Assembly (NCBI GenBank): GCA_964016885.1
Contig: OZ024760.1
Coordinates: 29,760,001 to 29,824,000 of the forward strand
Length of the DNA stretch: 64,000 bases
From: Eledone cirrhosa
Taxonomy: Eukaryota
Direction: 5' to 3'
Shown: piece after piece, positions 1 to 61,397 of the stretch
How the letters are laid out: every line of letters starts with the position of its first letter
Position numbering within the stretch: position 1 is the stretch's first letter
Notes under the pieces: generated by a model
What the model saw: the letters and a program-made list of their open reading frames with translations, nothing else
The model's database searches: none
Told to the model about the DNA's origin: nothing
Program-made: the position numbers and the translations under genes

Positions 1-1815
1 TGTGTAATGTAATGTAATGTAATGTGTAATGTAATGTAATGTAATGTAATATAATGTAATGTAATGTAATGTAATGTAATGTAACGTGTAATGTAATGTG
101 TAATGTAATGTAATGTAATGTAATTTAATGTGTAATGTAACGTAATGTAATGTGTAATGTAATGTAATGTGTAATGTAATGTAATGTAATGTAATGTAAT
201 GTGTAATGTAATGTAATGTAATGTAATATAATGTAATGTAATGTAATGTAATGTGTAATGTAATGTAATGTAATGTAATGTAATGTAGTGTGTAATGTAA
301 TGTAATGTAATGTAATGTACTGTAATGTGTAATGTAATGTAATGTAATGTGTAATGTAATGTAATGTAATATAATGTAATGTAATGTGCAATCTAATGTA
401 ATGTAATGTAATGTGTAATGTAATGTAATGTAGTGTGTAATGTAATGTAATGTAATGTAATATAATGTAATGTAACGTAATGTAATGTAATGTAATGTAA
501 TGTAATGTGTAATGTAATGTAATGTAATGTAATGTAATGTAATGTAATGTAATGTAATGTAATGTAATATAATATAATGTGTAATGTAATGTAATGTGTA
601 ATGTAATGTAATGTAATGTAATGTAACGTAATTTAATGTAATCTAATGTAATATAATGTAATTTGTAATGTAATGTAATGTGTAATGTAATGTAATGTAA
701 TGTGTAATGTAATGCAATGTAATGTCATGTAATGTGTAATGTAGTGTAATGTAATGTAATGTAATGTAATGTAATGTAATGTGTAATGTAATGTGTAATG
801 TAATGTAATGTAATGTAATGTAATGTAAAGTAATATATGTAATGTAATGTAATGTAATGTAATGTAATGTAATCTAATGTAATGTAATGTAATGTAATGT
901 GTAATGTAATGTAATGTAATGTAATGTAATCTGTAATGTAATGTAATGTGTAATGTAATGTAATGTAATGTGTAATGTAACGTAATGTGTAATGTAATGT
1001 AATGTGTAATGTAATGTAATGTAATATAATATAATGTAATGTAATGTAACGTGTAATGTAATGTAATGTAATGTAATGTGTAATGTAATGTAATGTAATG
1101 TAATGTAATGTAATGTGTAATGTAATGTAATGTAATGTGAAATGTAATGTAATGTAATGTAACGTGTAATTTAATGTAATGTAATGTGTAATGTAATGTA
1201 ATGTAATGTAATGTAATGTGTAATGTAATGTAATGTAATGTAATGTAGTGTGTAATGTAATGTAATGTAATGTAATGTGTAATGTAATGTAATGTAATGT
1301 AATGTGTAATGTAATGTAATGTAATGTAATGTAATGTGTAATGTAATGTAATGTGTAATGTGTAATGTAATGTAATGTAATGTAATATAATGTAATGTAA
1401 TGTAATGTAATGTAATGTGTAATGAAATGTAATGTAATGTAATGTGTAATGTAATGGAATGTGTAAGGTAATGTAATGTAATGTAATGTAATGTGTAATG
1501 TAATGTAATGTAATGTAATGTGTAATGTAATGTAATGTAATGTAATGTAATGTAATGTGTAATGTAATGTAATGTAATGTGTAATGTAATGTAATGTAAC
1601 TTGTAATGTAATGTAATGTAATGTAATGTGTAATGTAATGTAATGTAATGGAATGTGTAATGTAATGTGTAGTGTAATGTAATGTAATGTGTAATGTAAT
1701 GTAATGTATTGTAATGTAATGTAATTGTTTCTAATTTAGGCAGCAATTACCCTGTGCATTACTGGTACTTTATTTTATCGACCCCGTAAGGATGAAAAGC
1801 AAAGTCAACCTCGGT

Positions 1816-1828
1816 GGGATTTGAACTC
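1816..1828 (-). promoter_or_regulatory. RNA polymerase III B box (example from copy 1)
   Basis: GAGTTCAAATCCC matches the GTTCRANNC consensus, lies about 50 bp downstream of the A box and is intact in all 12 full copies. Confidence 0.88.
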
Positions 1829-1879
1829 AGATCGTAAAGGGACGTAACTATGCTGGAAAGCATGGCGTCCGACCCTCTA

Positions 1880-1891
1880 CCGATACTGCCA
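1880..1891 (-). promoter_or_regulatory. RNA polymerase III type-2 promoter A box (example from copy 1)
   Basis: TGGCAGTATCGG begins at position 11 of the element and fits a TRGCNNA..GG A box. It is present in all full copies and mutated to TCGC in the copy at 9804-9979. Confidence 0.8.
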
Positions 1892-3762
1892 ATCCACCGC
1901 CGTTTGTAATGTAATGTAATGTAATGTAATTTTTAATGTAACGTAATGTAATTTAATGTAATGTAATGTGTAACGTAATGTAATGTAATGAAAATGTAAT
2001 GTAATGTGTAATGTAATGTGTAATGTAATGTGTAATGTAATGTAATGTAATGTGTAATGTAATGTAATGTAATGTAATATAATGTAATGTAATGTAATGT
2101 AATGTAATGTAACGTGTAATGTAATGTGTAATGTAATGTAATGTAATGTAATTTAATGTGTAATGTAACGTAATGTAATGTGTAATGTAATGTAATGTGT
2201 AATGTAATGTAATGTAATGTAATGTAATGTAATGTGTAATGTAATGTAATGTAATGTAATATAATGTAATGTAATGTAATGTAATGTGTAATGTAATGTA
2301 ATGTAATGTAATGTAGTGTGTAATGTAATGTAATGTAATGTAATGTACTATAATGTGTAATGTAAGGTAATGTAATGTGTAATGTAATGTAATGTAATAT
2401 AATGTAATGTAATGTGCAATCTAATGTAATGTAATGTAATGTGTAATGTAATGTAATGTAGTGTGTAATGTAATGTAATGTAATGTTATATAATGTAATG
2501 TAATGTAATGTAATGTAATGTAATGTAATGTGTAATGTAATGTAATGTAATGTAATGTAATGTAATGTAATGTAATGTAATGTAATGTAATATAATATAA
2601 TGTGTAATGTAATGTAATGTGTAATGTAATGTAATGTAATGTAATGTAACGTAATTTAATGTAATGTAATGTAATATAATGTAATTTGTAATGTAATGTA
2701 ATGTGTAATGTAATGTAATGTAATGTGTAATGTAATGTAATGTAATGTCATGTAATGTGTAATGTAGTGTAATGTAATGTAATGTAATGTAATGTAATGT
2801 AATGTGTAATGTAATGTGTAATGTAATGTAATGTAATGTAATGTAATGTAAAGTAATATATGTAATGTAATGTAATGTAATGTAATGTAATCTAATGTAA
2901 TGTAATGTAATGTAATGTGTAATGTAATGTAATGTAATGTAATGTAATCTGTAATGTAATGTAATGTGTAATGTAATGTAATGTAATGTGTAATGTAACG
3001 TAATGTGTAATGTAATGTAATGTGTAATGTAATGTAATGTAATATAATATAATGTAATGTAATGTAACGTGTAATGTAATGTAATGTAATGTAATGTGTA
3101 ATGTAATGTAATGTAATGTAATGTAATGTAATGTGTAATGTAATGTAATGTAATGTGAAATGTAATGTAATGTAATGTAACGTGTAATTTAATGTAATGT
3201 AAGTGTAATGTAATGTAATGTAATGTAATGTAATGTAATGTAATGTGTAATGTAATGTAATGTAATGTAATGTAGTGTGTAATGTAATGTAATGTAATGT
3301 AATGTGTAATGTAATGTAATGTAATGTAATGTGTAATGTAATGTAATGTAATGTAATGTAATGTAATGTAATGTGTAATGTAATGTAATGTGTAATGTGT
3401 AATGTAATGTAATGTAATGTAATATAATGTAATGTAATGTAATGTAATGTAATGTGTAATGAAATGTAATGTAATGTAATGTGTAATGTAATGTAATGTG
3501 TAAGGTAATGTAATGTAATTTTATGTAATGTGTAATGTAATGTAATGTAATGTAATGTGTAATGTAATGTAATGTAATGTAATGTAATGTAATGTGTAAT
3601 GTAATGTAATATAATGTGTAATGTAATGTAATGTAACTTGTAATGTAATGTAATGTAATGTAATGTGTAATGTAATGTAATGTAATGGAATGTGTAATGT
3701 AATGTGTAGTGTAATGTAATGTAATGTGTAATGTAATGTAATGTATTGTAATGTAATGTAAT

Positions 3763-3938
3763 TGTTTCTAATTTAGGCAGCAATTACCCTGTGCATTACT
3801 GGTACTTTATTTTATCGACCCCGTAAGGATGAAAAGCAAAGTCAACCTCGGTGGGATTTGAACTCAGATCGTAAAGGGACGTAACTATGCTGGAAAGCAT
3901 GGCGTCCGACCCTCTACCGATACTGCCAATCCACCGCC
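3763..3938 (-). mobile_element. SINE copy 2 (lineage A, deleted form)
   Basis: Same sequence and same flanks as copy 1, located 2037 bp away. Confidence 0.9.
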
Positions 3939-4037
3939 GTTTGTAATGTAATGTAATGTAATGTAATTTTTAATGTAACGTAATGTAATTTAATGTAATG
4001 TAATGTGTAACGTAATGTAATGTAATGAAAATGTAAT

Positions 4038-4081
4038 TGTTTCTACTTTTGGCACAAGGCCAGCAATTACCCAGTGCATTA
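4038..4081 (-). mobile_element. 5'-truncated SINE fragment (3'-terminal 44 bp, lineage B-like)
   Basis: TGTTTCTACTTTTGGCACAAGGCCAGCAATTACCCAGTGCATTA matches the 3' end of the copies at 10792 and 60762, not the adjacent lineage A copy. Confidence 0.88.
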
Positions 4082-6970
4082 GTAATGTAATGTAATGTAA
4101 TGTAATGTAATGTTTAATGTAGTATAATGTAATGTAATGTAATGTAATGTAATGTAATGTAATGTTTAATGTAATGTAATGTAATGTAATGTAATTTTGA
4201 ATGTAATGTAATGTAATGTAATGTAATGTAATGTAATGTAATGTAATGTAGTGTAATGTAATGAAATGTAATGTAATGTGTAATGTAATGTAATGTAATG
4301 TAATGTAATGTAATGTAATGTGTAATGTAATGTAATGTAATGTAATGTGTAATGAGATGTAATGTAATGTAATGTAATGTATTGTTTAATGTAATGTAAT
4401 GTGTAATATAATGTAATATAATGTAATGTGTAATGTAATGTAATATAATGTAATGTAATGTGTAATGTAATGTAATGTAATGTAATGTAATGTAATGTGT
4501 AATGTAATGTAATGTAATTTAATTTAATTTAATGTAATGTAATGTAATGTAATGTAATGTAATGTAATGTAATGTAATGTAATGTAATGTAATGTAATAT
4601 AATGTAATGTAACGTAATGTAATGTGTAATGTAATGTAATGTAATGTAATGTAATGTAATGTAATGTAATGTTTAATGAGATGTAATGTAATGTAATGTA
4701 ATGTTTAATGTAATGTAACGTGTAATATAATGTAATGTAATGTAATGTGTAATGTAATGTAATATAATGTAATGTAATGTAATGTAATGTAACGTGTAAT
4801 GTAATGTGTAATGTAATGTAATGTAATGTAATTTAATGTGTAATGTAACGTAATGTAATGTGTAATGTAATGTAATGTGTAATGTAATGTAATGTAATGT
4901 AATGTAATGTAATGTGTAATGTAATGTAATGTAATGTAATATAATGTAATGTAATGTAATGTGTAATGTAATGTAATGTAATGTAATGTAGTGTGTAATG
5001 TAATGTAATGTAATGTAATGTACTGTAATGTGTAATGTAAGGTAATGTAATGTGTAATGTAATGTAATGTAATATAATGTAATGTAATGTGCAATCTAAT
5101 GTAATGTAATGTAATGTGTAATGTAATGTAATGTAGTGTGTAATGTAATGTAATGTAATGTAATATAATGTAATGTAATGTAATGTAATGTAATGTGTAA
5201 TGTAATGTAATGTAATGTAATGTAATGTAATGTAATGTAATATAATGTAATGTAATGTGCAATCTAATGTAATGTAATGTAATGTGTAATGTAATGTAAT
5301 GTAATGTAATATAATGTAATGTAATGTAATGTAATGTAATGTAACGTGTAATGTAATGTGTAATGTAATGTAATGTAATGTAATTTAATGTGTAATGTAA
5401 CGTAATGTAATGTGTAATGTAATGTAATGTGTAATGTAATGTAATGTAATGTAATGTAATGTAATGTGTAATGTAATGTAATGTAATGTAATATAATGTA
5501 ATGTAATGTAATGTAATGTGTAATGTAATGTAATGTAATGTAATGTAGTGTGTAATGTAATGTAATGTAATTTAATGTACTATAATGTGTAATGTAAGGT
5601 AATGTAATGTGTAATGTAATGTAATGTAATATAATGTAATGTAATGTGCAATCTAATGTAATGTAATGTAATGTGTAATGTAATGTAATGTAGTGTGTAA
5701 TGTAATGTAATGTAATGTTATATAATGTAATGTAATGTAATGTAATGTAATGTAATGTAATGTGTAATGTAATGTAATGTAATGTAATGTAATGTAATGT
5801 AATGTAATGTAATATAATATAATGTGTAATGTAATGTAATGTGTAATGTAATGTAATGTAATGTAATGTAACGTAATTTAATGTAATGTAATGTAATATA
5901 ATGTAATTTGTAATGTAATGTAATGTGTAATGTAATGTAATGTAATGTGTAATGTAATGTAATGTAATGTCATGTAATGTGTAATGTAGTGTAATGTAAT
6001 GTAATGTAATGTAATGTAATGTGTAATGTAATGTGTAATGTAATGTAATGTAATGTAATGTAATGTAAAGTAATATATGTAATGTAATGTAATGTAATGT
6101 AATGTAATCTAATGTAATGTAATGTAATGTAATGTGTAATGTAATGTAATGTAATGTAATGTAATCTGTAATGTAATGTAATGTGTAATGTAATGTAATG
6201 TAATGTGTAATGTAACGTAATGTGTAATGTAATGTAATGTGTAATGTAATGTAATGTAATATAATATAATGTAATGTAATGTAACGTGTAATGTAATGTA
6301 ATGTAATGTAATGTGTAATGTAATGTAATGTAATGTAATGTAATGTAATGTGTAATGTAATGTAATGTAATGTGAAATGTAATGTAATGTAATGTAACGT
6401 GTAATTTAATGTAATGTAATGTGTAATGTAATGTAATGTAATGTAATGTAATGTGTAATGTAATGTAATGTAATGTAATGTAGTGTGTAATGTAATGTAA
6501 TGTAATGTAATGTGTAATGTAATGTAATGTAATGTAATGTGTAATGTAATGTAATGTAATGTAATGTAATGTAATGTAATGTGTAATGTAATGTAATGTG
6601 TAATGTGTAATGTAATGTAATGTAATGTAATATAATGTAATGTAATGTAATGTAATGTAATGTGTAATGAAATGTAATGTAATGTAATGTGTAATGTAAT
6701 GTAATGTGTAAGGTAATGTAATGTAATTTTATGTAATGTGTAATGTAATGTAATGTAATGTGTAATGTAATGTAATGTAATGTAATGTAATGTAATGTAA
6801 TGTGTAATGTAATGTAATATAATGTGTAATGTAATGTAATGTAACTTGTAATGTAATGTAATGTAATGTAATGTGTAATGTAATGTAATGTAATGGAATG
6901 TGTAATGTAATGTGTAGTGTAATGTAATGTAATGTGTAATGTAATGTAATGTATTGTAATGTAATGTAAT

Positions 6971-7146
6971 TGTTTCTAATTTAGGCAGCAATTACCCTGT
7001 GCATTACTGGTACTTTATTTTATCGACCCCGTAAGGATGAAAAGCAAAGTCAACCTCGGTGGGATTTGAACTCAGATCGTAAAGGGACGTAACTATGCTG
7101 GAAAGCATGGCGTCCGACCCTCTACCGATACTGCCAATCCACCACC
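6971..7146 (-). mobile_element. SINE copy 3 (lineage A, deleted form)
   Basis: Same as copy 1 except CCACC for CCGCC at the element 5' end. Flanks are the same. Confidence 0.9.
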
Positions 7147-9803
7147 GTTTGTAATGTAATGTAATGTAATGTAATTTTTAATGTAACGTAATGTAATTTA
7201 ATGTAATGTAATGTGTAACGTAATGTAATGTAATGAAAATGTAATGTAATGTGTAATGTAATGTGTAATGTAATGTGTAATGTAATGTAATGTAATGTGT
7301 AATGTAATGTAATGTAATGTAATGTAATGTAATGTTTAATGTAGTATAATGTAATGTAATGTAATGTAATGTAATGTAATGTAATGTTTAATGTAATGTA
7401 ATGTAATGTAATGTAATTTTGAATGTAATGTAATGTAATGTAATGTAATGTGATGTAATGTAATGTAATGTAGTGTAATGTAATGAAATGTAATGTAATG
7501 TGTAATGTAATGTAATGTAATGTAATGTAATGTAATGTAATGTGTAATGTAATGTAATGTAATGTAATGTGTAATGAGATGTAATGTAATGTAATGTAAT
7601 GTATTGTTTAATGTAATGTAATGTGTAATATAATGTAATATAATGTAATGTGTAATGTAATGTAATATAATGTAATGTAATGTGTAATGTAATGTAATGT
7701 AATGTAATGTAATGTAATGTGTAATGTAATGTAATGTAATTTAATTTAATTTAATGTAATGTAATGTAATGTAATGTAATGTAATGTAATGTAATGTAAT
7801 GTAATGTAATGTAATGTAACGTAATGTAATGTGTAATGTAATGTAATGTAATGTAATGTAATGTAATGTAATGTAATGTAATGTTTAATGAGATGTAATG
7901 TAATGTAATGTAATGTTTAATGTAATGTAACGTGTAATATAATGTAATGTAATGTAATGTGTAATGTAATGTAATATAATGTAATGTAATGTAATGTAAT
8001 GTAACGTGTAATGTAATGTGTAATGTAATGTAATGTAATGTAATTTAATGTGTAATGTAACGTAATGTAATGTGTAATGTAATGTAATGTGTAATGTAAT
8101 GTAATGTAATGTAATGTAATGTAATGTGTAATGTAATGTAATGTAATGTAATATAATGTAATGTAATGTAATGTGTAATGTAATGTAATGTAATGTAATG
8201 TAGTGTGTAATGTAATGTAATGTAATGTAATGTACTGTAATGTGTAATGTAAGGTAATGTAATGTGTAATGTAATGTAATGTAATATAATGTAATGTAAT
8301 GTGCAATCTAATGTAATGTAATGTAATGTGTAATGTAATGTAATGTAGTGTGTAATGTAATGTAATGTAATGTAATATAATGTAATGTAATGTAATGTAA
8401 TGTAATGTGTAATGTAATGTAATGTAATGTAATGTAATGTAATGTAATGTAATATAATGTAATGTAATGTGCAATCTAATGTAATGTAATGTAATGTGTA
8501 ATGTAGTGTAATGTAGTGTGTAATGTAATGTAATGTAATGTAATATAATGTAATGTAATGTAATGTAATGTAATGTGTAATGTAATGTAATGTAATGTAA
8601 TGTAACGTAATTTAATGAAATGTAATGTAATGTAATGTAATTTGTAATGTAATGTAATGTGTAATGTAATGTAATGTAATGTAATGTGTAATGTAATGTA
8701 ATGTAATGTCATGTAATGTGTAATGTAGTGTAATGTAATGTAATGTAATGTAATGTAATGTAATGTGTAATGTAATGTGTAATGTAATGTAATGTAATGT
8801 AATGTAACGTAATATATGTAATGTAATGTAATGTATTGTAATGTAATCTAATGTAATGTAATGTAATGTGTAATGTAATGTAATGTAATGTAATGTGTAA
8901 TGTAATGTAATGTGTAATGTAATGTAATGTAATGTAATGTAATGTGTAATGTAATGTAATGTAATGTGTAATGTAACGTAATGTGTAATGTAATGTAATG
9001 TGTAATGTAATGTAATGTAATATAATATAATGTAATGTAATGTAACGTGTAATGTAATGTAATGTAATGTAATGTAATGTGTAATGTTATGTAATGTAAT
9101 GTAATGTAATGTGTAATGTAATGTAATGTAATGTGAAATGTAATGTAATGTAATGTAACGTGTAATTTAATGTAATGTAATGTGTAATGTAATGTAATGT
9201 GTAATGTAATGTAATGTAATGTAGTGTGTAATGTAATGTAATGTAATGTGTAATGTAATGTAATGTGTAATGTAATGTAATGTAATGTAATGTAATGTAA
9301 CGTAATGTGTAATGTAATGTAATGTGTAATGTGTAATGTAATATAATGTAATATAATGTAATGTAATGTGTAATGAAATGTAATGTAATGTAATGTGTAA
9401 TGTAATGTAATGTGTAAGGTAATGTAATGTAATGTGTAATGTAATGTAATGTAATGTAATGTGTAATGTAATTTAATGTAATGTAATGTGTAATGTAATG
9501 TAATGTGTAATGTAATGTAATGTAATGTAATGTAATGTGTAATGTAATGTAATGTGTAATGTGTAATGTAATGTAATGTAATGTAATATAATGTAATGTA
9601 ATGTAATGTAATGTAATGTGTAATGAAATGGAATGTAATGTAATGTGTAATGTAATGTAATGTGTAAGGTAATGTAACGTGTAATGTAATGTAATGTAAT
9701 GTAATTTGTAATGTAATGTAATGTAATGGAATGTGTAATGTAATGTGTAGTGTAATGTAATGTAATGTGTAACGTAATGTAATGTATTGTAATGTAATGT
9801 AAT

Positions 9804-9979
9804 TGTTTCTAATTTAGGTAGCAATTACCCTGTGCATTACTGGTACTTTATTTTATCGACCCCGTAAGGATGAAAAGCAAAGTCAACCTCGGTGGGATTT
9901 GAACTCAGATCGTAAAGGGACGTAACTATGCTGGAAAGCATGGCGTCCGACCCTCTACCGATACTGCGAATCCACCGCC
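9804..9979 (-). mobile_element. SINE copy 4 (lineage A, deleted form, A-box mutation)
   Basis: Same as copy 1 with AGGTAGC and ACTGCGAAT substitutions. Immediate flanks are the same. Confidence 0.9.
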
Positions 9980-10791
9980 GTTTGTAATGTAATGTAATGT
10001 AATGTAATGTAATGTAATGTAATGTTTAATGTAATGTAATGTAATGTAATGTGTAATGTAATGTAATGTAATGAAAATGTAATGTAATGTGTAATGTAAT
10101 GTGTAATGTAATGTAATGTAATGTTTAATGTAGTGTAATGTAATGTAATGTAATGTAATGTAATGTAATGTTTAATGTAATGTAATGTAATGTAATGTAA
10201 TTTTGAATGTAATGTAATGTAATGTAATGTAATGTAATGTAATGTAATGTAATGTAATGAAATGTAATGTAATGTGTAATGTAATGTAATGTGTAATGTA
10301 ATGTAATGTAATGTAATGTGTAATGAGATGTAATGTAATGTAATGTATTGTTTAATGTAATGTAATGTAATGTAATGTGTAATGTAATGTAATATAATGT
10401 AATGTGTAATGTAATGTAATGTAATGTAATGTAATGTAATGTGTAATGTAATGTAATGTAATGTAATGTAATGTAATGTAATGTGTAATGTAATGTAATG
10501 TAATGTAATGTAATGTTTAATGAGATGTAATGTAATGTAATGTAATGTTTAATGTAATGTAACGTGTAATATAATGTAATGTAATGTAATGTGTAATGTA
10601 ATGTAATGTAACGTGTAATGTAATGTGTAATGTAATGTAATTTAATGTGTAATGTAACGTAATGTAATGTGTAATGTAATGTAATGTGTAATGTAATGTA
10701 ATGTAATGTAATGTGTAATGTAATGTAATGTAATGTAATGTAATATAATGTAATGTAATGTAATGTGTAATATAATGTAATGTAATATAAT

Positions 10792-10976
10792 TGTTTCTAC
10801 TTTTGGCACAAGGCCAGCAATTACCCAGTACATTACTGGTACTTTATTTTATCGACCCCGTAAGGATGAAAGGCAAAGTTAACCTCGGCGGGATTTGAAC
10901 TCAGACCGCAAAGGGTCGTAATTATGCTGGAAAGCATGGCGTCCGACTCTCTACCGATACTGCCAATCCACCGCCC
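10792..10976 (-). mobile_element. SINE copy 5 (lineage B, full length, independent insertion with 19 bp TSD)
   Basis: Diagnostic variants are CTACTTTTGGCACAAGGCCAGC, GAAAGGC, CTCGGCGGG and GACCGCAAAGGGTCGTAATT. It is flanked by TAATGTAATGTAATATAAT at 10773-10791 and 10977-10995. Confidence 0.92.
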
Positions 10977-12125
10977 TAATGTAATGTAATATAATGTAAT
11001 GTAATGTGCAATCTAATGTAATGTAATGTAATGTGTAATGTAATGTAATGTAGTGTGTAATATAATGTAATGTAATGTAATATAATGTAATGTAATGTAA
11101 TGTAATGTAATGTAATGTGTAATGTAATGTAATGTAATGTAATGTAACGTAATTTAATGTAATGTAATGTAATGTAATGTAATTTGTAATGTAATGTAAT
11201 GTGTAATGTAATGTAATGTAATGTGTAATGTAATGTAATGTAATGTCATGTAATGTGTAATGTAGTGTAATGTAATGTAATGTAATGTAATGTAATGTAA
11301 TGTGTAATGTAATGTGTAATGTAATGTAATGTAATGTAAAGTAATATATGTAATGTAATGTAATGTAATGTAATGTGTAATGTAATGTAATGTGTAATGT
11401 AATGTAATGTAATGTAATGTAATGTAATGTGTAATGTAATGTAATGTACTGTGTAATGTAACGTAATGTGTAATGTAATGTAATGTGTAATGTAATGTAA
11501 TGTAATATAATATAATGTAATGTAATGTAACGTGTAATGTAATGTAATGTAATGTAATGTAATGTGTAATGTAATGTAATGTAATGTAATGTAATGTAAT
11601 GTGTAATGTAATGTAATGTAATGTGAAATGTAATGTAATATAACGTGTAATTTAATGTAATGTAATGTGTAATGTAATGTAATGTAATGTAATGTAATGT
11701 GTAATGTAATGTAATGTAATGTAATGTAGTGTGTAATGTAATGTAATGTAATGTAATGTGTAATGTAATGTAATGTAATGTAATGTAATGTGTAATGTAA
11801 TGTAATGTGTAATGTGTAATGTAATGTAATGTAATGTAATATAATGTAATGTAATGTAATGTAATGTAATGTGTAAGGTAATGTAATGTAATGTAATGTA
11901 ATGTGTAATGTAATGTAATGTAATGTAATGTGTAATGTAATGTAATGTAATGTAATGTGTAATGTAATGTAATGTAATGTGTAATGTAATGTAATGTAAT
12001 TTGTAATGTAATGTAATGTAATGTAATGTGTAATGTAATGTAATGTAATGGAATGTGTAATGTAATGTGTAGTGTAATGTAATGTAATGTGTAATGTAAT
12101 GTAATGTATTGTAATGTAATGTAAT

Positions 12126-12301
12126 TGTTTCTAATTTAGGCAGCAATTACCCTGTGCATTACTGGTACTTTATTTTATCGACCCCGTAAGGATGAAAAGC
12201 AAAGTCAACCTCGGTGGGATTTGAACTCAGATCGTAAAGGGACGTAACTATGCTGGAAAGCATGGCGTCCGACCCTCAACCGATACTGCCAATCCACCGC
12301 C
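12126..12301 (-). mobile_element. SINE copy 6 (lineage A, deleted form)
   Basis: Same as copy 1 with a CTCAACC substitution. Flanks are the same. Confidence 0.9.
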
Positions 12302-49300: not shown

Positions 49301-52300
49301 TAATGTAATGTAATGTAATGTAATGTAATGTGTAATGTAATGTAATGTAATGTAATGTGTAATGTAATGTAGTGTGTAATGTAATGTAATGTAATGTAGT
49401 GTGCAATGTAATGTAATGTAATGTGTAATGTAATGTGTAATGTAATGTAATGTAATGTAATATAATGTGTAATGTAATGTAATGTGTAATGTAATGTAAT
49501 GTAATGTAATGTAATGTTTAATGTAGTGTAATGTAATGTAATGTAAAGTAATGTAATGTAATGTAATGTAATGTTTAATGTAATGTAATGTAATGTAATG
49601 TAATATTTAATGTAATGTAATGTAATGTAATGTAATTTAATGTGTAATGTAATGTAATGTAATGTAATGTAATGTAATGTAATGTAGTGTAATGTAATGA
49701 AATGTAATGTAATGTGTAATGTAATGTAATGTAATGTAATGTAATGTAATGTAATGTAGTTTGCAATGTAATGTAATGTAATGTGTAATGTAATGTGTAA
49801 TGTAATGTAATGTAATGTAATATAATGTGTAATGTAATGTAATGTGTAATGTAATGTAATGTAATGTAATGTGTAATGTAATGTAATGTAATGTAATTTA
49901 ATGTAATGTAATGTAATGTAATGTAATGTAATGTAATGTAATGTAATGTAATGTAATGTAATGTATGTTTAATGAGATGTAATGTAATATAACGTAATGT
50001 TTAATGTAATGTAATGTGTAATATAATGTAATGTAATGTAATGTGTAATGTAATGTATTATAATGTAATGTAATGTGTAATGTAATGTAATGTAATGTAA
50101 TGTAATGTGTAATGTAATGTAATGTAATGTAATGTAATGTGTAATGTAATGTAATGTAATGTAATGTAATGTGTAATGTAATGTAATGTAATGTAATGTA
50201 ATGTAATGTAATGTGTAATGTAATGTAATGTAATGTAATGTAATGTAATGTAATGTGTAATGTAATGTAATGTAATGTAATGTAATGTAATGTGTAATGT
50301 AATTTAATGTAATGTAATGTAATGTAATGTAATGTAATGTAATGTAATGTAATGTAATGTAATGTGTAATGTAACGCAATGTAATGTAATGTAATGTGTA
50401 ATCTAATGTAATGTAATGTAATGTAATGTAATGTAATGTAATGTAATGTAATGTGTAATGTGTAATGTAATGTAATGTAATGTGTAATGTAATGTAATGT
50501 AATGTGTAATCTAATGTAATGTAATTTAATGTAATGTAATGCAATTTAATGTAATGTAATGTAATGTAATGTAATATGTAATGTAATGTAATGTAATTTA
50601 ATGTAATGTAATGTGTAATGTAATGTAATGTAATGAAAATGTAATGTAATGTGTAATGTAATGTGTAATGTAATGTAATGTGTAATGTAATGTAATGTAA
50701 TGTAATGTAATGTAATGTAATGTAATGTAATGTGTAATGTAATGTAATGCAATGTAATGTAATGTAATGTAATGTAATGTAATGTAATGTAATGTGTAAT
50801 GTAATGTAATGTAATGTAATGTGTAATGTATTGTAATGTAATGTAATATAATGTAATGTAATGTAATGTAATGTAATGTAATGTAATGTAATGTAATGTA
50901 ATGTAATGTTTAATGAGATGTAATGTAATGTAATATAATGTGTAATGTAATGTAATGTGTAATATAATGTAATGTAATGTAATGTGTAATGTAATGTAAT
51001 ATAATGTAATGTAAAGTGTAATGTAATGTAATGTAATCTAATGTAATGTGTAACATAATATAATGTAATGTAACGTAATATGTAATGTAATGTAATGTAA
51101 TGTAATGTAATGTGTCACGTAGTGTAATGTAATGTAATGTAATGTAATATGTAATGTAATGTAATGTGTAATGTAGTGTAATGTAATGTAATGTAATGTA
51201 ATGTAATGTGTAATGTAATGTAATGTGTAATGTAATGTAATGTAATGTAATGTAATGTAATGTAATCTAATGTAACGTAATGTAATGTGTAATGTAATGT
51301 AATGTAATGTAATGTAATGTAACGTAATGTAATGTGTAATGTAACGTAATGTAATGTAATGTGTAATGTAATGTAATGTAATGTAATGTAACGTGTAATG
51401 TAATGTAATGTAATGTAATGTGTAATGTAATGTAATGTAATGTAATGTAATGTAATGTAATGTAATGTGTAATGTAATGTAGTGTAATGTAATGTAATGT
51501 AATGTAATGTAATGTGTAATGTAATGTAATGTAATGTAATGTAATGTGTAATGTAATGTAATGTAATGTAATGTAATGTATAATGTAATGTAATGTAATG
51601 TAATGTAATGTAATGTGTAATGTAATGTAATGTAATGTAATGTGTAATGTAATGTAATGTAATGTGTAATGTAATGTAATGTAATGTAATGTAATGTGTA
51701 ATGTAATGTAATGTAATGTAATGTGTAATGTAATGTAGTGTGTAATGTAAGGTAATGTAATGTAGTGTGTAATGTAATGTAATGTAATGTGTAATGTAAT
51801 GTGTAATGTAATGTAATGTAATGTAATATAATGTGTAATGTAATGTAATGTGTAATGTAATGTAATGTAATGTAATGTAATGTAATGTAATGTAATTTAA
51901 TGTAATGTAATGTAATGTGTAATGTAATGTAATGTAATGTGTAATGTAATGTAATGTAATGTAATGTGTAATGTAATGTAATGTAATGTAATGTAATGTA
52001 ATGTAATGTGTAATGTAATGTAATGTAATGTAATGTGTAATGTAGTGTAATGTAATGTAATGTAATGTAATGTAATGTAATGTAATGTAATGTGTAATGT
52101 AATGTGTAATGTAATGTAATGTAATGTAATGTAATATATGTAATGTAATGTAATGCAATGTAATGTAATGTAATGTGTAATGTAATGTAATGTAATGTGT
52201 AATGTAATGTAATGTAATGTAATGTAATGTAATGTAATGTGTAATGTAATCTAATGTGTAATGTAAAGTAATGTAATGTAACGTAATGTAATGTAATGTA

Positions 52301-53350
52301 ATGTGTAATGTAATGTAATCTAATGTAGTGTGTAATGTAATGTAATGTTATGTAATGTGTAATGTAATGTAATGTAATGTTTAATCTAATGTAATGTAAT
52401 GTAATGTAATGTGTAATGTAATGTAATGTAATGTAATGTAATGTGTAATGTAATGTAATGTGTAATATAATGTAATGTAATGTAATGTAATGTAATGTGT
52501 AATGGAATGTAATGTAATGTAATGAAATGTGTAATGTAATGTAATGTAATGTAATGTAATGTAATGTAATGTAATGTGTAATGTAATGTAGTGTAATGTA
52601 ATGTAATGTAATGTAATGTAATGTAATGTAATGTGTAATGTAATGTAATGTAATGTAATGTAATGTAATGTAATGTGTAATGTAATGTAATGTAATGTAA
52701 TGTATAATGTAATGTAATGTAATGTAATGTGTAATGTAATGTAATGTAATGTAATGTGTAATGTAATGTAATGTAATGTGTAATGTAATGTAATGTAATG
52801 TAATGTAATGTAATGTGTAATGTAATGTAATGTAATGTAATGTGTAATGTAATGTAGTGTGTAATGTAATGTAATGTAATGTAGTGTGCAATGTAATGTA
52901 ATGTAATGTGTAATGTAATGTGTAATGTAATGTAATGTAATGTAATATAATGTGTAATGTAATGTAATGTGTAATGTAATGTAATGTAATGTAATGTAAT
53001 GTTTAATGTAGTGTAATGTAATGTAATGTAAAGTAATGTAATGTAATGTAATGTAATGTTTAATGTAATGTAATGTAATGTAATGTAATATTTAATGTAA
53101 TGTAATGTAATTTAATGTGTAATGTAATGTAATGTAATGTAATGTAATGTAATGTAATGTAGTGTAATGTAATGAAATGTAATGTAATGTGTAATGTAAT
53201 GTAATGTAATGTAATGTAATGTAATGTGTAATGTAATGTAATGTAATGTAATGTGTAATGTAATGTAATGTAATGTAATTTAATGTAATGTAATGTAATG
53301 TAATGTAATGTAATGTAATGTAATGTAATGTAATGTATGTTTAATGAGAT
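46250..53350. repeat. Tandem duplication, period about 3.48-3.50 kb
   Basis: TTGCAATG at 46261/49761, GTATGTTTAATGAGAT near 46468 and 49963, GTCACGTAG near 47629 and 51114, and TTTAATCTAAT near 48900 and 52380. Confidence 0.82.
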
Positions 53351-55779
53351 GTAATGTAATATAACGTAATGTTTAATGTAATGTAATGTGTAATATAATG
53401 TAATGTAATGTAATGTGTAATGTAATGTAATATAATGTAATGTAATGTGTAATGTAATGTAATGTAATGTAATGTAATGTGTAATGTAATGTAATGTAAT
53501 GTAATGTAATGTGTAATATAATGTAATGTAATGTAATGTAATGTAATGTGTAATGTAATGTAATGTAATGTAATGTAATGTGTAATGTAATGTAATGTAA
53601 TGTAATGTAATGTAATGTAATGTGTAATGTAATGTAATGTAATGTAATGTAATGTAATGTAATGTAATGTGTAATGTAATGTAATGTAATTTAATGTAAT
53701 GTAATGTGTAATGTAATGTAATGTGTAATGTAATGTAATGTAATGTAATGTAATGTAATGTAATGTAATGTAATGCGTAATGTAATGTAATGTAATGTAA
53801 TGTAATGTAATGTAATGTGTAATGTAATGTAATGTGTAATGTATTGTAATGTAATGTAATGTAATGTAATGTAATGTAATGTAATGTAATGTAATGTAAT
53901 GTAATGTAATGTAATGTAATGTAATGTAATGTAATGTAATGTTTAATGAGATGTAATGTAATGTAACGTAATGTTTAATGTAATGTAATGTGTAATATAA
54001 TGTACTGTAATGTAATGTGTAATGTAATGTAATGTAATGTAATGTAATGTGTAATGTAATGTAATGTAATCTAATGTAATCTGTAACATAATGTAACGTA
54101 ATATGTAATGTAATGTAATGTAATGTAATGTAATGTGTCATGTAGTGTAATGTAATGTAATGTAATGTAATATGTAATGTAATGTAATGTGTAATGTAGT
54201 GTAATGTAATGTAAAGTAATGTGTAATGTAATGTAATGTGTAATGTAATGTAACGTAATGTAATGTAATGTAATGTAATGTAATGTAATCTAATGTAACG
54301 TAATGTAATGTGTAATGTAATGTAATGTAATTTTATGTAATGTAATGTGTAAGTAATGTAATGTAATGTAATGTGTAATGTAATGTAATGTAATGTAATG
54401 TAACGTGTAATTTAATGTAATGTAATGTAATGTAATGTGTAATGTAATGTAATGTAATGTAATGTAATGTAATGTGTAATGTAATGTAGTGTAATGTAAT
54501 GTAATGTAATGTAATGTAATGTAATGTAATGTGTAATGTAATGTAATGTAATGTAATGTAATGTAATGTAATGTGTAATGTAATGTAATGTAATGTAATG
54601 TAATGTAATGTATAATGTAATGTAATGTAATGTGTAATGTAATGTAATGTAATGTAATGTGTAATGTAATGTAATGTAATGTGTAATGTAATGTAATGTA
54701 ATGTAATGTAATGTGTAATGTAATGTAATGTAATGTAATGTTTAATGTAATGTAGTGTGTAATGTAATGTAATGTAATGTAGTGTGTAATGTAATGTAAT
54801 GTAATGTGTAATGTAATGTGTAATGTAATGTAATGTAATGTAATATAACGTGTAATGTAATGTAATGTGTAATGTAATGTAATGTAATGTAATGTAATGT
54901 AATGTAATGTAATTTAATGTAATGTAATGTAATGTGTAATGTAATGTAATGTAATGTGTAATGTAATGTAATGTAATGTAATGTGTAATGTAATGTAATG
55001 TAATGTAATGTAATGTAATGTAATGTAATGTAATGTAATGTAATGTAATGTAATGTGTAATGTAATGTAATGTAATGTGTAATGTAGTGTAATGTAATGT
55101 AATGTAATGTAATGTAATGTAATGTAATGTAATGTAATGTAATGTAATGTGTAATGTAATGTGTAATGTAATGTAATGTAATGTAATATATGTAATGTAA
55201 TGTAATGCAATGTAATGTAATGTAATATGTAATGTAATGTAATGTAATGTATAATGTAATGTAATGTAATGTAATGTAATGTAATGTAATGTGTAATGTA
55301 ATCTAATGTGTAATGTAAAGTAATGTAATGTAATGTAATGTAAGGTAATGTGTAATGTAATGTAATCTAATGTAGTGTGTAATGTAATGTAATGTTATGT
55401 AATGTGTAATGTAATGTAATGTAATGTTTAATCTAATGTAATGTAATGTAATGTAATGTGTAATGTAATGTAATGTAATGTAATGTAATGTAATGTGTAA
55501 TGTAATGTAATGTAATGTAATGTAATGTAATGTGTAATGTAATGTAATGTGTAATATAATGTAATGTAATGTAATGTAATGTAATGTGTAATGGAATGTA
55601 ATGTAATGTAATGAAATGTGTAATGTAATGTGTAATGTAATGTGTAATGTAATGTAATGTAATGTAATGTAATGTAATGTAATGTAATGTAATGTGTAAT
55701 GTAATGTAATGTAATGGAATGTGTAATGTAATGTAATGTAATGTTAAGTAATGTGTAATGTAATGTAATGTAATGTAAT

Positions 55780-58700
55780 GTAATGTAATGTAATGTAACG
55801 TAATGTAATGTAATGTAATGTGTAATTAAATGTAATGTAATGTAATGTAGTGTGTAATGTAATGTAATGTAATGTAATGTAATGTAATGTAATGTAATGT
55901 AAAGTAATGTGTAATATAATGTAATGTAATGTAATGTAGTGTGTAATGTAATGTAAGGTTATGTGTAGCGTAATGTAATGTAATGTGTAACGTAATGTAA
56001 TGTAATGTAATATGTAATGTAATGTAATGTAAAGTAACTTAATGTACTGTAATGTGTAATGTAATGTAATGTAATGTAATGTAATGTAATGCGTAATGTA
56101 ATGTAATGTAATGTAATGTAATGTAATGTGTAATGTAATGTAATGTAATGTGTAATATAATGTAATGTAATGTAATGTAGTGTGTAATGTAATGTAAGGT
56201 ATTGTGTAATGTAATGTAATGTGTAATGTAATGTAATGTAATGTAATATGTAATGTAATGTAATGTAATGTAATGTAATGTAATGTAATGCGTAATGTAA
56301 TGTAATGTAATATAATGTAATGTGTAATGTAATGTAATGTAATGTGTAATGTAATGTAATGTAATGTAATGTAATGTAATGTAATGTGTAATGTAATGTG
56401 TAATGTAATGTAATGTAATGTAATGTAATGTGTAATGTAATGTAATGTAACGTGTAATGTAATGTAATGTAATGTAATGTGTAATGTAATGTAATGTAAT
56501 GTAATGTAATGTAATGTGTAATGTAATGTAATGTAATGTAATGTAATGTAATGTGTAATGTAATGTAATGTAATGTAGTGTGTAATGTAATGTAATGTAA
56601 TGTAATGTAATGTAATGTACTGTAATGTGTAATGTAATGTAATGTAATGTGTAATGTAATGTAATGTAATATAATGTAATGTAATGTGTAATGTAATGTA
56701 ATGTAATGTAATGTGTAATGTGTAATGTAATGTAATGTAATGTAGTGTGTAATGTAATGTAATGTAATATAATGTAATGTAATGTGTAATGTAATGTAAT
56801 GTAATGTAATGTAATGTAATGCGTAATGTAATGTAATGTAATGTAATGTAATGTAATGTAAGGTTATGTGTAACGTAATGTAATGTAATGTGTAACGTAA
56901 TGTAATGTAATGTAATATGTAATGTAATGTAATGTAAAGTAACTTAATGTAATGTAATGTGTAATGTAATGTAATGTAATGTAATGTAATGTAATGTAAT
57001 GTAATGCGTAATGTAATGTAATGTAATGTAATGTATTGTAATGTAATGTAATGTAATGTAATGTGTAATGTAATGTAATGTAATGTAATGTAATGTAATG
57101 TAATGCGTAATGTAATGTAATGTAATGTAATGTAATGTAAGGTTATGTGTAACGTAATGTAATGTAATGTGTAACGTAATGTAATGTAATGTAATATGTA
57201 ATGTAATGTAATGTAAAGTAACTTAATGTAATGTAATGTGTAATGTAATGTAATGTAATGTAATGTAATGTAATGTAATGTAATGTAATGTAATGTGTAA
57301 TATAATGTAATGTAATGTAATGTAGTGTGTAATGTAATGTAAGGTATTGTGTAATGTAATGTAATGTGTAATGTAATGTAATGTAATGTAATATGTAATG
57401 TAATGTAATGTAATGTAATGTAATGCGTAATGTAATGTAATGTAATATAATGTAATGTGTAATGTAATGTGTAACGTAATGTAATGTAATGTGTAATGTA
57501 ATGTAATGTAATGTAATGTGTAATGTAATGTAATGTAATGTAATGTAATGTAATGTAATGTAACGTAATGTAATGTAATGTAATGTGTAATTAAATGTAA
57601 TGTAATGTAATGTAGTGTGTAATGTAATGTAATGTAATGTAATGTAATGTAATGTAATGTAATGTAATGTGTAATGTAATGTAATGTAAAGTAATGTGTA
57701 ATATAATGTAATGTAATGTAATGTAGTGTGTAATGTAATGTAAGGTTATGTGTAGCGTAATGTAATGTAATGTGTAACGTAATGTAATGTAATGTAATAT
57801 GTAATGTAATGTAATGTAAAGTAACTTAATGTACTGTAATGTGTAATGTAATGTAATGTAATGTAATGTAATGTAATGCGTAATGTAATGTAATGTAATG
57901 TAATGTAATGTGTAATGTAATGTAATGTAATGTAATGTGTAATATAATGTAATGTAATGTAATGTAGTGTGTAATGTAATGTAAGGTATTGTGTAATGTA
58001 ATGTAATGTGTAATGTAATGTAATGTAATGTAATATGTAATGTAATGTAATGTAATGCGTAATGTAATGTAATGTAATATAATGTAATGTGTAATGTAAT
58101 GTAATGTAATGTGTAATGTAATGTAATGTAATGTAATGTAATGTAATGTAATGTGTAATGTAATGTGTAATGTAATGTAATGTAATGTAATGTAATGTGT
58201 AATGTAATGTAATGTAACGTGTAATGTAATGTAATGTAATGTAATGTGTAATGTAATGTAATGTAATGTCATGTAATGTAATGTGTAATGTAATGTAATG
58301 TAATGTAATGTAATGTGTAATGTAATGTAATGTAATGTAGTGTGTAATGTAATGTAATGTAATGTAATGTAATGTAATGTACTGTAATGTGTAATGTAAT
58401 GTAATGTAATGTGTAATGTAATGTAATGTAATATAATGTAATGTAATGTGTAATGTAATGTAATGTAATGTAATGTGTAATGTGTAATGTAATGTAATGT
58501 AATGTAGTGTGTAATGTAATGTAATGTAATGTAATATAATGTAATGTAATGTGTAATGTAATGTAATGTAATGTAATGTAATGTAATGCGTAATGTAATG
58601 TAATGTAATGTAATGTAATGTAAGGTTATGTGTAACGTAATGTAATGTAATGTGTAACGTAATGTAATGTAATGTAATATGTAATGTAATGTAATGTAAA

Positions 58701-59600
58701 GTAACTTAATGTAATGTAATGTGTAATGTAATGTAATGTAATGTAATGTAATGTAATGCGTAATGTAATGTAATGTAATGTAATGTAATGTAATGTAATG
58801 TAATGTAATGTGTAATGTAATGTAATGTAATGTGTAATATAATGTAATGTAATGTAATGTAGTGTGTAATGTAATGTAAGGTATTGTGTAATGTAATGTA
58901 ATGTGTAATGTAATGTAATGTAATGTAATATGTAATGTAATGTAATGTAATGTAATGTAATGCGTAATGTAATGTAATGTAATATAATGTAATGTGTAAT
59001 GTAATGTGTAACGTAATGTAATGTAATGTGTAATGTAATGTAATGTAATGTAATGTGTAATGTAATGTAATGTAATGTAATGTAATGTAATGTAATGTAA
59101 TGTAATGTAATGTAATGTGTAATGTAATGTAATGTAATGTAATGTGTAATCTAATGTAATGTAATGTAATGTAATGTAATGTAATGTAATGTGTAATGTA
59201 ATGTGTAATGTAATGTAATGTAATGTAATGTGTAATGTAATGTAATGTAACGTGTAATGTAATGTAATGTAATGTAATGTGTAATGTAATGTAATGTAAT
59301 GTAATGTAATGTGTAATGTAATGTAATGTAATGTAATGTGTAATGTAATGTAATGTAATGTAGTGTGTAATGTAATGTAATGTAATGTAATGTAATGTAA
59401 TGTAATGTAATGTACTGTAATGTGTAATGTAATGTAATGTAATGTGTAATGTAATGTAATGTAATATAATGTAATGTAATGTGTAATGTAATGTAATGTA
59501 ATGTAATGTAATGTGTAATGTGTAATGTAATGTAATGTAATGTAGTGTGTAATGTAATGTAATGTAATGTAATATAATGTAATGTAACGTAATGTAATGT
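55780..59600. repeat. Distinct sub-array with ~1.77-1.79 kb duplication and private variant motifs
   Basis: TTAAATG at 55826/57591, GTAGCG near 55965 and 57752, and AAAGTAACTTAATG at 56031, 56936, 57215, 57818 and 58698. Confidence 0.8.
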
Positions 59601-60761
59601 AATGTAATGTAATGTAATGTAATGTAATGTAATATAATATAATGCGTAATGTAATGTAATGTAATGTAATGTAATGTGTAATTTAATGTAATGTAATGTA
59701 ATGTAATGTAACGTAATTTAATGTAATGTAATGTAATGTAATGTAATTTGTAATGTAATGTAATGTAATGTGTAAAGTAATGTAATGGAAAGTGTAATGT
59801 AATGTAATGTCGTGTAATGTGTAATGTAATGGAAAGTGTAATGTAATGTAATGTCGTGTAATGTGTAATGTAGTGTAATGTAATGTAATGTAATGTAATG
59901 TAATGTAATGTGTAATGTAATGTAATGTAATGTAATGTAAAGTAATATATGTAATGTAATGTAATGTAATGTAAAGTAATATATGTAATGTAATGTAATG
60001 TAATGTAATCTAATGTAATGTAATGTGTAATGTAATGTAATGTAACGTAATGTAATGTGTAATGTAATGTAATGTGTAATGTAATGTAATGTAATGTGTA
60101 ATGTGTAATGTAATGTAATGTAATGTAATGTGTAATGTAATGTAATATAATGTGTAATGTAATGTAATGTAATATAATGTAATGTAATGTAATGTAATGT
60201 AATGTAATGTAATGTAATGTAATGTAATGTAATGTAACGTGTAATGTAATGTAATGTAATGTAATGTAATGTGTAAGGTAATGTAATGTAATGTAATGTA
60301 ATGTAATGTAATGTGTAATGTGTTATGTAATGTAATGTAATGTGTAATGTAATGTAATGTAATGTGTAATGTAATGTAATGTAATGTGTAATGTAATGTA
60401 ATGTAATGTAATGAAATGTAATGTAATGTAATGTGTAATGTAATGTAATGTAATGTAGTGTGTAATGTAATGTAATGTAATGTAATGTGTAATGTAATGT
60501 AATGTAATGTAATGTGTAATGTAATGTAACGTAATGCAATGTAATGTGTAATGTAATGTAATGTAATGTAATGTGTAATGTAATGTAATGTGTAATGTAA
60601 TATAATGTAACGTAATATAATGTAATGTGTAATGAAATGTAATGTAATGTAATGTAATGTAATGTGTAATGTAATGTAATGTAATGTAATGTGTAATTTA
60701 ATGTAACGTAATGTGTAATGTAATGTAATCAAATGTAATGTAATGTGTAATGTAATGTAAT

Positions 60762-60946
60762 TGTTTCTACTTTAGGCACAAGGCCAGCAATTACCCAGTG
60801 CATTACTGGTACTTTATTTTATCGACCCCGTAAGGATGAAAGGCAAAGTCAACCTCGGCGGGATTTGAACTCAGATCGTAAAGGGACGTAACTATGCTGG
60901 AAAACATGGCGTCCGACCCTCTACCGATACTGCCAATCCACCACCC
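60762..60946 (-). mobile_element. SINE copy 11 (lineage B, full length, independent insertion with 19 bp TSD)
   Basis: Carries CTACTTTAGGCACAAGGCCAGC, GAAAGGC and CTCGGCGGG variants. It is flanked by ATGTGTAATGTAATGTAAT at 60743-60761 and 60947-60965. Confidence 0.92.
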
Positions 60947-61213
60947 ATGTGTAATGTAATGTAATGTAATGTAATGTGTAAGGTAATGTAATGTAATGTA
61001 ATGTGTAATGTAATGTAATGTAATGTGTAATGTAATGTAATGTAATGTGTAATGTAATGTAATGTAATTTGTAATGTACTGTAATCTAATGTAATGTAAT
61101 GTAATGTAATGTAATGTGTAATGTAATGTAATGTAATGGAATGTGTAATGTAATGTGTAATGTAATGTAATGTAATGTCTAATGTGATGTAATGTATTGT
61201 AATGTAATGTAAT

Positions 61214-61397
61214 TGTTTCTAATTTAGGAACAAGGGCAGCAATTACCCTGTGCATTACTGGTACTTTATTTTATCTACCCCATAAGGATGAAAAGCAAAG
61301 TCAACCTCGGTGGGATTTGAACTCAGATCGTAAAAGGACGTAACTATGCTGGAAAGCATGGCGTCCGACCCTCTACCGATACTGCCAATCCACCGCC
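61214..61397 (-). mobile_element. SINE copy 12 (lineage A, undeleted form, 184 bp)
   Basis: Has lineage A flanks and shares AGGAAC, CCCATAAGG and the upstream GTGATGTAATGTATTG with copy 9. Confidence 0.9.

Follow-up and report, generated by a model that had tools for sequence, protein, structure and literature searches.

A young, abundant SINE inserted genome-wide at Y|ATTAT, whose fixed orientation and phase in a megabase TAATG satellite likely reflect site availability

The window studied here, a 64-kb (64,000-nucleotide) stretch of Eledone cirrhosa DNA, carries copies of a young, abundant 185-bp SINE which, in our confident assessment, inserts genome-wide at Y|ATTAT, likely via an L1/Tx1-type LINE, and which likely owes its orientation and phase within the surrounding satellite to sites on the CATTA strand. 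We therefore regard the SINE as likely an ordinary sequence-biased element and not a satellite-homing one. This reading draws on its copy number, its junction spectrum, tail-less duplications that start with ATTAT, an asymmetry of sites between the strands of the array, the lack of enrichment within it, and a small number of insertions that were amplified in tandem.

The window lies within a (TAATG)n array of ~1.3 Mb on contig C21 (about 29.66-30.96 Mb), and the TAATG repeat had a single orientation in every stretch read. As a preliminary description of this DNA had reported, the window holds 13 SINE copies, all on the minus strand and all joined to the satellite at TAAT|TGTTTC, with GTAAT as the junction flank of 12 copies and ATAAT as that of one (10792). 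The features are as follows.

1..64000, plus strand: (TAATG)n satellite of pentamers, some of them variant, that includes tandem duplications on the kb scale; belongs to the ~1.3-Mb array
1709..1725, no strand: target-site duplication of lineage A, 17 bp, 3'-side copy (partner copy 1904-1920; 2 extra bases at 1902-1903)
1726..1901, minus strand: SINE lineage A, 176 bp, lacking 8 bp close to its 3' end
3763..3938, minus strand: SINE lineage A, 176 bp, tandem duplicate
4038..4081, minus strand: SINE fragment, 5'-truncated, last 44 bp, independent event B
6971..7146, minus strand: SINE lineage A, 176 bp
9804..9979, minus strand: SINE lineage A, 176 bp
10792..10976, minus strand: SINE of 185 bp from independent event C, its target a variant monomer that reads ATTAT (10773-10791 and 10977-10995 form the 19-bp duplication)
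12126..12301, minus strand: SINE lineage A, 176 bp
19889..20064, minus strand: SINE lineage A, 176 bp
26351..26526, minus strand: SINE lineage A, 176 bp (matches the 19889 copy exactly over 300 bp of flank on each side)
34278..34461, minus strand: SINE lineage A, 184 bp
35105..35288, minus strand: SINE lineage A, 184 bp
60762..60946, minus strand: SINE, event D, 185 bp (19-bp duplication, 60743-60761 and 60947-60965)
61214..61397, minus strand: SINE lineage A, 184 bp

Flanks and diagnostic bases separate the same four insertion events that had been recognized earlier. The 10 copies of lineage A have their diagnostic bases and both flanks in common, seven of them with the 8-bp deletion, and events B (4038), C (10792) and D (60762) each have flanks and bases of their own. 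Five empty paralogous sites of event C are present in the window (at 330, 2359, 5034, 5591 and 8246), and the event D copy has dispersed counterparts on other chromosomes that match it at 100% identity. Relative to a paralogous unit near 7230-7330, ~60 bp of target is missing at the event B fragment, for which no clear target duplication was found.

The element has the features of a SINE, being short, non-coding and high in copy number, with target-site duplications and 5'-truncated copies. Octopus SINEs include OK, OR1 and OR2. Using A- and B-box patterns, we noted a B-box-like motif at element position 77-85, seen in the event D copy, and an A-box-like stretch visible near 12-23; a strict A-box pattern gave 0 matches. 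ARAGORN found no tRNA in the SINE and Rfam gave no tRNA match on 60600-61500, where a weak match to U2 (E 0.015; 23.9 bits, the gathering score being 46) was treated as chance. The predicted fold of the whole SINE was not more stable than shuffles (z -0.85), and by eye the element did not resemble the bivalve MetaSINE alignments in the accessible part of PMC4824008; MetaSINEs carry a 66-bp Meta domain after the head.

We surveyed 824 kb of the ~1.3-Mb array and found all 143 of 143 SINE copies on the minus strand, derived from ~16 events as assigned by hand-written rules that pool D and E and omit three internal fragments. ATTA is the junction with the satellite in each of the 16 events that retain a 3' end. 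The preliminary description had conceded that four events in one orientation are weak evidence alone; with 16 of 16 events on the minus strand (P ~3e-5), the orientation lock is more than chance, and such a fixed orientation and phase is what a satellite-targeting element would display within its array. Apart from the SINE, no non-satellite sequence of at least 25 bp with transposon character was found in the window, as noted before, or in the 824 kb. Array copies have satellite on both sides, duplications of 17-20 bp and empty paralogous sites. Raw copy density is higher in the array (174/Mb) than in background DNA (~103/Mb, from 40 copies of at least 89% identity in 390 kb, some of them tandem duplicates) because of tandem duplication, with lineage A alone, a single event, supplying 77 of the 143 copies. 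Independent events amount to ~19/Mb, rarer than background copies, a density not to be taken for a rate of insertion, since arrays both grow and shrink and could postdate the background.

Genome-wide, the exact 34-nt SINE 3' end has 35,600 matches (17,841 on the forward strand, 17,759 on the reverse), only 23 of which fall in the 824 kb of array. The sequence that follows it is ATTAT in 28,935 cases (81%), ATTAC, the satellite's own form, in 494 (1.4%) and (ATT)5 in 1,646 (4.6%). A three-monomer satellite junction occurs in 114 copies, mostly tandem duplicates within one array; of the 13 listed outside C21, all of which were inspected, most are short runs of only 2-3 monomers surrounded by non-satellite DNA, and (TATTA)n tracts hold two. 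A pattern for the opposite orientation, which detects only intact ends at most 8 bases from two monomers, had 7 matches genome-wide, none of them on C21 and each with a junction that reads ATTA or GTTA. When we surveyed 81 dispersed copies of at least 93% identity for target duplications, 52 had a duplication starting exactly at the junction, 3 had an offset one and in 26 none was found; the 52 begin with ATTAT in 47 cases and ATTA in 51, and have T or C at position -1 in 47. These duplications, beginning at Y|ATTAT, are 9-21 bp long with a peak at 16-18 bp, and the dispersed copies themselves lack a tail.

On the minus strand of the array ATTA sites occur at 164.9/kb, compared with 0.48/kb on the plus strand, with Y|ATTA ~340 times commoner on the CATTA strand than on the TAATG strand, and this asymmetry likely accounts for the orientation and phase of the array copies. 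From per-site rates taken genome-wide, the exact-end events expected in 824 kb are ~18.9 on the minus strand and 0.14 on the plus strand; an exact end is present in 5 event groups. Per site, ATTAC is used ~23-fold less than ATTAT. Even within the array the rare ATTAT monomers are over-used: they account for 5 of 16 events, compared with an availability of 3.6% (P = 2e-4) and with the 47% to be expected if the genome-wide preference applied (P = 0.22), a pre-insertion ATTAT being proven among these five for event C only. Mechanistically, we propose that an endonuclease would nick the complementary strand at ATAAT|R (GTAAT|G in the satellite), that the short AU-rich 3' end of the RNA would pair with the freed DNA end to prime reverse transcription, and that a second nick ~16-18 bp away would create the target duplication; unequal exchange may later have spread the inserts along the array. 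The interpretation in the preliminary description is borne out in part: a short ATTA motif at the 3' junction is needed for insertion, and homing to the satellite is not supported.

The earlier proposal of a SINE that, together with its LINE, homes into the (TAATG)n satellite finds support in the uniform orientation and phase, in the absence of any other element from the surveyed array and in the raised raw density; however, we consider it very improbable, given that the copies are overwhelmingly dispersed, that the preferred junction is not that of the satellite, that the raw density stems from duplication of one event with no enrichment of independent ones, and that the 3' end of the candidate LINE was not found in the array. 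For a target-specific element, the accessible part of PMC4494074 uses a threshold of at least 20% of copies flanked by the target repeat; here, 114 satellite and 494 ATTAC junctions stand against the 35,600 exact ends. A majority of copies outside the satellite, with no enrichment inside it, is also the outcome that the preliminary description had named in advance as refuting its proposal.

It is scarcely credible that the satellite instead grew from SINE tails and inherited its orientation and phase from the SINE, even though a SINE adjoins a short (TAATG)n tract on C13 and another lies at the right-hand boundary of the large array. Dispersed copies lack such a tail, array copies show the flanks, duplications and empty sites of insertions, and both edges of the large array grade into (TAATA)n-like sequence. 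We give similarly little credence to symmetric insertion followed by loss of plus-strand copies through selection or array turnover. Tandem SINE duplicates, together with lineages restricted to particular sub-domains of the array, make turnover evident, but site availability alone predicts ~99% minus-strand events, so no removal is needed.

Returning to insertion at Y|ATTAT, the partner is probably a young, (ATT)n-associated L1/Tx1-type LINE family or a sister family. This candidate (L164/L253) encodes an apurinic-type endonuclease, a reverse transcriptase (RT) and a zf-RVT domain, its closest solved structure being human L1 ORF2p (E 4e-51, against 1e-21 for R2), and has at least 150 copies identical across 200 aa; a homologue search with it returned 23 proteins, one of them named, generically. 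Its 5' end abuts (ATT)n in 20 of 20 stretches examined and ATT repeats follow its 3' end in 30 of 30 loci. It shares with the SINE the motif CCTTGTG and the same 16-nt spacing from loop to ATTAT junction; the two 3' ends are similar, not identical, and a small hairpin in the predicted fold of the L253 end is absent from that of the SINE. The LINE sharing the SINE 3' end that had been anticipated has a candidate counterpart with a similar end, and a microsatellite-specific partner probably exists, but its target is (ATT)n and not the satellite.

It is less likely, though worth weighing, that the site bias is as described and the partner is a CR1-type LINE or a LINE family not seen here. The top RT matches belong to a young, abundant family with a 945-aa frame that we take, from its motifs, to be CR1-type and that also ends in C|ATTATT, and no LINE was found with the exact SINE 3' end: among 153 ends with the exact SINE hairpin scanned in the loci retrieved, 146 were SINE-type and 7 other, none a convincing LINE, and a search with one narrow pattern, designed to catch this hairpin in elements other than the SINE, gave only 14 raw matches. 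However, the CR1-type 3' end is unlike that of the SINE, its copies ending in a variable (ATT)n tail, absent from SINE copies, and then ordinary flank. An element that is presumably R4/Dong-like was rejected as partner for its TAA repeat on the opposite strand, and the RTE-like and R4/Dong-like elements of the background loci for their other tails.

Elements such as SART/TRAS and Waldo are telomere- or microsatellite-specific and largely confined to their repeat. The present SINE resembles them in having one orientation and one phase in a short-unit tandem array, and differs in being dispersed and not enriched there. In the accessible part of PMC4494074, Tx1-clade LINEs with microsatellite targets include Kibi in (TC)n and Koshi in (TTC)n, and SINEU is paired with Tx1-Mar. 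Like Kibi and Koshi, the candidate, a putative Tx1 member, is a LINE of the L1 group that has an endonuclease and an RT and occupies a microsatellite, and like SINEU the present SINE shares the target preference of its LINE more weakly; unlike in those systems, the LINE target here is (ATT)n and the SINE target a single Y|ATTAT, and the SINE head looks tRNA-like rather than snRNA-derived as in SINEU. Base-pairing at priming has also been proposed for RTE-related SINEs, whose duplications likewise begin with bases matching a repeat-like 3' end, although the available text of PMC6007223 describes a match of 1-2 bases and most animal duplications as at most 13 bp, compared with five bases in 81% and a peak of 16-18 bp here; no RTE with the SINE 3' end was found. 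According to the portion consulted of PMC13282606, SINEs make up 11.6% of the O. vulgaris genome and L1-Tx1, CR1, RTE and Dong-R4 were recently active; elements of broadly similar kind are seen in the present genome. Our literature search, with Repbase and most subscription papers outside its scope, found no paper on the SINE target site or the TAATG satellite, so an earlier description of the family may exist.

Nearly all copies of the LINE sit in (ATT)n tracts, as do only 4.6% of the exact SINE ends. We tentatively suggest, at somewhat less than even confidence, that the tail-less SINE rides an (ATT)n-specific Tx1-type LINE yet needs just one Y|ATTAT pentamer. If so, one enzyme would combine strict microsatellite targeting for its own RNA with relaxed five-base targeting for a passenger SINE that reached >35,000 near-identical copies. 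Nature would then have uncoupled the choice made by the endonuclease from RNA-primer pairing, and sub-domains of a 1.3-Mb satellite that had arisen from a (TAATA)n microsatellite would be datable by their SINE lineages. The finding that stands is a tight insertion signature, with most junctions at one pentamer, long duplications and no tail, together with a plausible Tx1-type partner. Any strand-asymmetric short-unit array can make a motif-biased retroposon look targeted, and the SINE insertions are usable as markers of the expansion of a megabase pentamer array.

Re-checked on the sequence, the window proved to be nearly all (TAATG)n in a single orientation, and the preliminary description of its SINE copies was accurate in their number, strand, junction and separation into events. 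All 13 copies of this 176-185-bp element lie on the minus strand and join the satellite at TAAT|TGTTTC; common flanks and diagnostic bases unite ten as lineage A, from which the other three are distinct:

Lineage A, 10 copies, minus strand: one ancestral insertion, 17-bp duplication
4038, minus strand: SINE fragment
10792, minus strand: SINE copy, 19-bp duplication; five empty copies of its site within the window
60762, minus strand: SINE copy, 19-bp duplication
61189-61299, minus strand: Rfam U2 match spanning a SINE 3' half and satellite; probably chance, at E 0.015 and a score far under the gathering score

Given the five empty copies, the variant ATTAT monomer at 10792 predates the insertion, the only event for which this is proven.

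The proposal that the SINE and an unseen LINE home into the satellite is refuted by the distribution of the element across the 3.0-Gb genome. Its exact 3' end (the last 34 bases) has 35,600 occurrences, split evenly between the strands, and is followed by ATTAT in 28,935 cases (81.3%), by (ATT)5 in 1,646 (4.6%) and by ATTAC in 494 (1.4%). Three-monomer satellite junctions number 114; of 100 listed, 87 belong to the array on contig OZ024760.1 (C21) and the remaining 13 are mostly 2-3 monomers within ordinary DNA. When the 60762 copy served as query, 27 of its best 30 matches lay outside satellite despite the 46 satellite bases it included, and several of the best were 100% identical. A background sample of 39 stretches at round coordinates (390 kb) held 51 matches that extend to the SINE 3' end (27 minus and 24 plus, with ATTAT in 41), and identity is >=89% in 40. 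Background density is ~103 copies/Mb versus ~19 events/Mb in the array (174 copies/Mb raw, mostly duplicates), a comparison made rough by array turnover and by tandem background copies, and there is no sign of enrichment. SINE copies nested in one another's target duplications form short tandem clusters in five fetched stretches (L004, L012, L058, L169, L170). An older, longer form carries ~30 extra bases ahead of the 3' motif (L006, L015, L017, L152, L164 and others) and was not found in 824 kb of array; the window subfamily looks like its deletion derivative. The SINE appears to resemble octopus SINEs.

The fixed orientation, phase and exclusivity of the SINE within the array are nevertheless real. 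Among 289 non-satellite segments of at least 25 bp in 824 kb of array, window included, 143 are SINE and the remainder variant monomers, with no other transposon seen. All 143 copies are on the minus strand, 77 of them belonging to lineage A and spanning 744 kb. With one group of three internal fragments left out, and with 60762 counted together with a similar lineage that lies 850 kb from it, rule-based grouping resolves 16 events that have a 3' end. All share one orientation (P about 3e-5), and four to five further array stretches added three copies, all minus strand and all at ATTAT. A SINE fragment with neither end, covering only internal positions 68-145, recurs at C21 positions 30,617,526, 30,647,129 and 30,650,706; it terminates at a TAAT inside the element, perhaps through recombination with the satellite.

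Orientation and phase are what a short target motif would produce in such DNA. We examined 81 distinct dispersed copies from 99 loci (>=93% identity, 3' end intact): the target duplication begins exactly at the junction in 52 and at an offset in 3, and none was detected by the rule used in 26. Those 52 duplications start with ATTAT (47), ATTAA (3), GTTAT (1) or ATTAC (1), and position -1 is T or C in 47. Duplication lengths are 9-21 bp, save one in a microsatellite, and 16-18 bp in 25/55. Because duplications start at the junction with ATTAT, this motif is part of the target and the copies are without a tail. In the array, ATTA occurs at 164.9/kb on the minus strand versus 0.48/kb on the plus strand. 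Per-site usage genome-wide is about 23x higher for ATTAT than for ATTAC, and at such rates a static 824 kb would be expected to hold 8.9 exact-end events at ATTAT, 10.0 at ATTAC and 0.14 on the plus strand; the observed number of event groups with the exact end is five. ATTAT monomers make up 3.6% of array sites but 5/16 events (P = 2e-4), consistent with the genome-wide preference (P = 0.22). The same one-site effect occurs outside satellites: in four loci (L005, L015, L062, L203), a single ATTAT site within the 3' UTR of a young CR1-type LINE has received the SINE recurrently, in the same orientation.

Exclusivity calls for a further cause. The background 390 kb contains 10 Tx1-type, 3 CR1-type, 2 R4-type and 7 long-SINE motif matches, and 824 kb of array contains none of these, whereas our arithmetic, scaled by the SINE's own deficit, anticipates about 9. 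Likely contributors are the near absence of ATTATT (0.08/kb in the array versus 2.2/kb), older families that would predate the array, and loss of long inserts through turnover.

The C21 array (~29.66 to 30.96 Mb), which contains the window at 29,760,001-29,824,000, appears to be the genome's sole large (TAATG)n array. A query of six perfect monomers finds 31,974 forward and 78 reverse matches genome-wide, and matches preceding the array, among the first 100 places listed, are short tracts. Since both array edges, ~29,659,540 (end of L137) and ~30,956,060 (L302:5845-6070), grade into (TAATA)n, as do two small tracts (L297, L298) on C13 and C3, the satellite's suggested origin is a (TAATA)n microsatellite with one A-to-G change. 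Between 29.73 and 30.91 Mb the array is layered: sub-domains hold separate SINE lineages (lineage A between 29.73 and 30.47 Mb, further lineages at 30.58-30.78 and 30.90 Mb; L031-L136), and variant monomers are also regional, CAATG occurring in runs at 30.12-30.33 Mb and TAATA in runs from 30.47 Mb onward. Pure (TTAAT)n extends over 141 bp at 29,840,250-29,840,390, and other parts of the array contain shorter runs of (CGTAA)n and (AAATG)n. The flanking stretches (L137, L138, L140) have higher G+C and other repeats, and a shorter-class RT match lies at 29,642,335-29,642,811, ~17 kb beyond the left edge.

Insertion most likely proceeds by target-primed reverse transcription. The strand complementary to the RNA would be nicked at ATAAT|R, the DNA end thus released would pair with a few AU residues at the end of the RNA, and the second cut would come ~16-18 bp away. 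Because the element has A at -1, the T or C found at that position lies outside any pairing and points to the endonuclease. Either the enzyme or the primer could account for the five matched bases, and sequence alone cannot tell these two apart. Within the satellite, on one strand only, CATTA monomers would serve as weak sites and TATTA or ATTAT variants as good ones, and tandem duplication would then multiply a few insertions. Short-motif priming or cutting is supported in kind, without satellite homing. For RTE-related elements, PMC6007223 describes 3' repeats that match the start of the duplication, and it cites base-pairing at the priming step in several clades; PMC4758252 and PMC3747384, as far as available, give general background only. 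By eye, the SINE did not match the Meta domain in the available portion of PMC4824008. No account of its target signature was found in the literature searched, Repbase and most subscription papers being outside its reach.

For the elements here, the names CR1, RTE and R4/Dong are provisional assignments from motifs. The most frequent RT matches belong to a CR1-type family whose (ATT)n tail varies between copies; we consider it the less likely partner for that variability and for a 3' end unlike the SINE's. On balance we favor, with some reservation, the L164/L253 LINE family or a sister. This element is about 6.0 kb long with two frames, and its ORF2 (1,195-1,204 aa; endonuclease, RT and zf-RVT domains) is closest among solved structures to human L1 ORF2p. 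A homologue search returned no useful family name, and the Tx1 label is provisional, given for the layout of the domains and the targeting of a microsatellite rather than from a tree. The last 200 residues are identical in at least 150 copies, many tandem; copies of the young L1/Tx1-type LINE (L217-L266) are often spaced ~6.07 kb apart in tandem and often lie within TAA tails of opposite-orientation R4/Dong-like elements. (ATT)n adjoins the LINE 5' end in 20/20 fetched stretches, and in copy L254 the duplication begins at a single ATTATA. At the 3' end, CCTTGTG and the 16-base distance from loop to ATTAT junction are common to both elements. The predicted fold of this LINE end includes a hairpin with that loop, and that of the SINE does not. 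No LINE end of this type was found in the array.

According to PMC4494074, some Tx1 elements insert specifically into (TC)n and (TTC)n, and there are SINEs with a weaker preference for a Tx1 target; PMC13282606 reports that L1-Tx1, CR1, RTE and Dong-R4 are active in Octopus vulgaris, which also has many families of SINEs. In Eledone cirrhosa, a related L1/Tx1-type family (L149:1715-4894, minus strand) carries a similar 3' motif and has an (ATCT)n tract at its end, and sister LINE families may therefore target different microsatellites.
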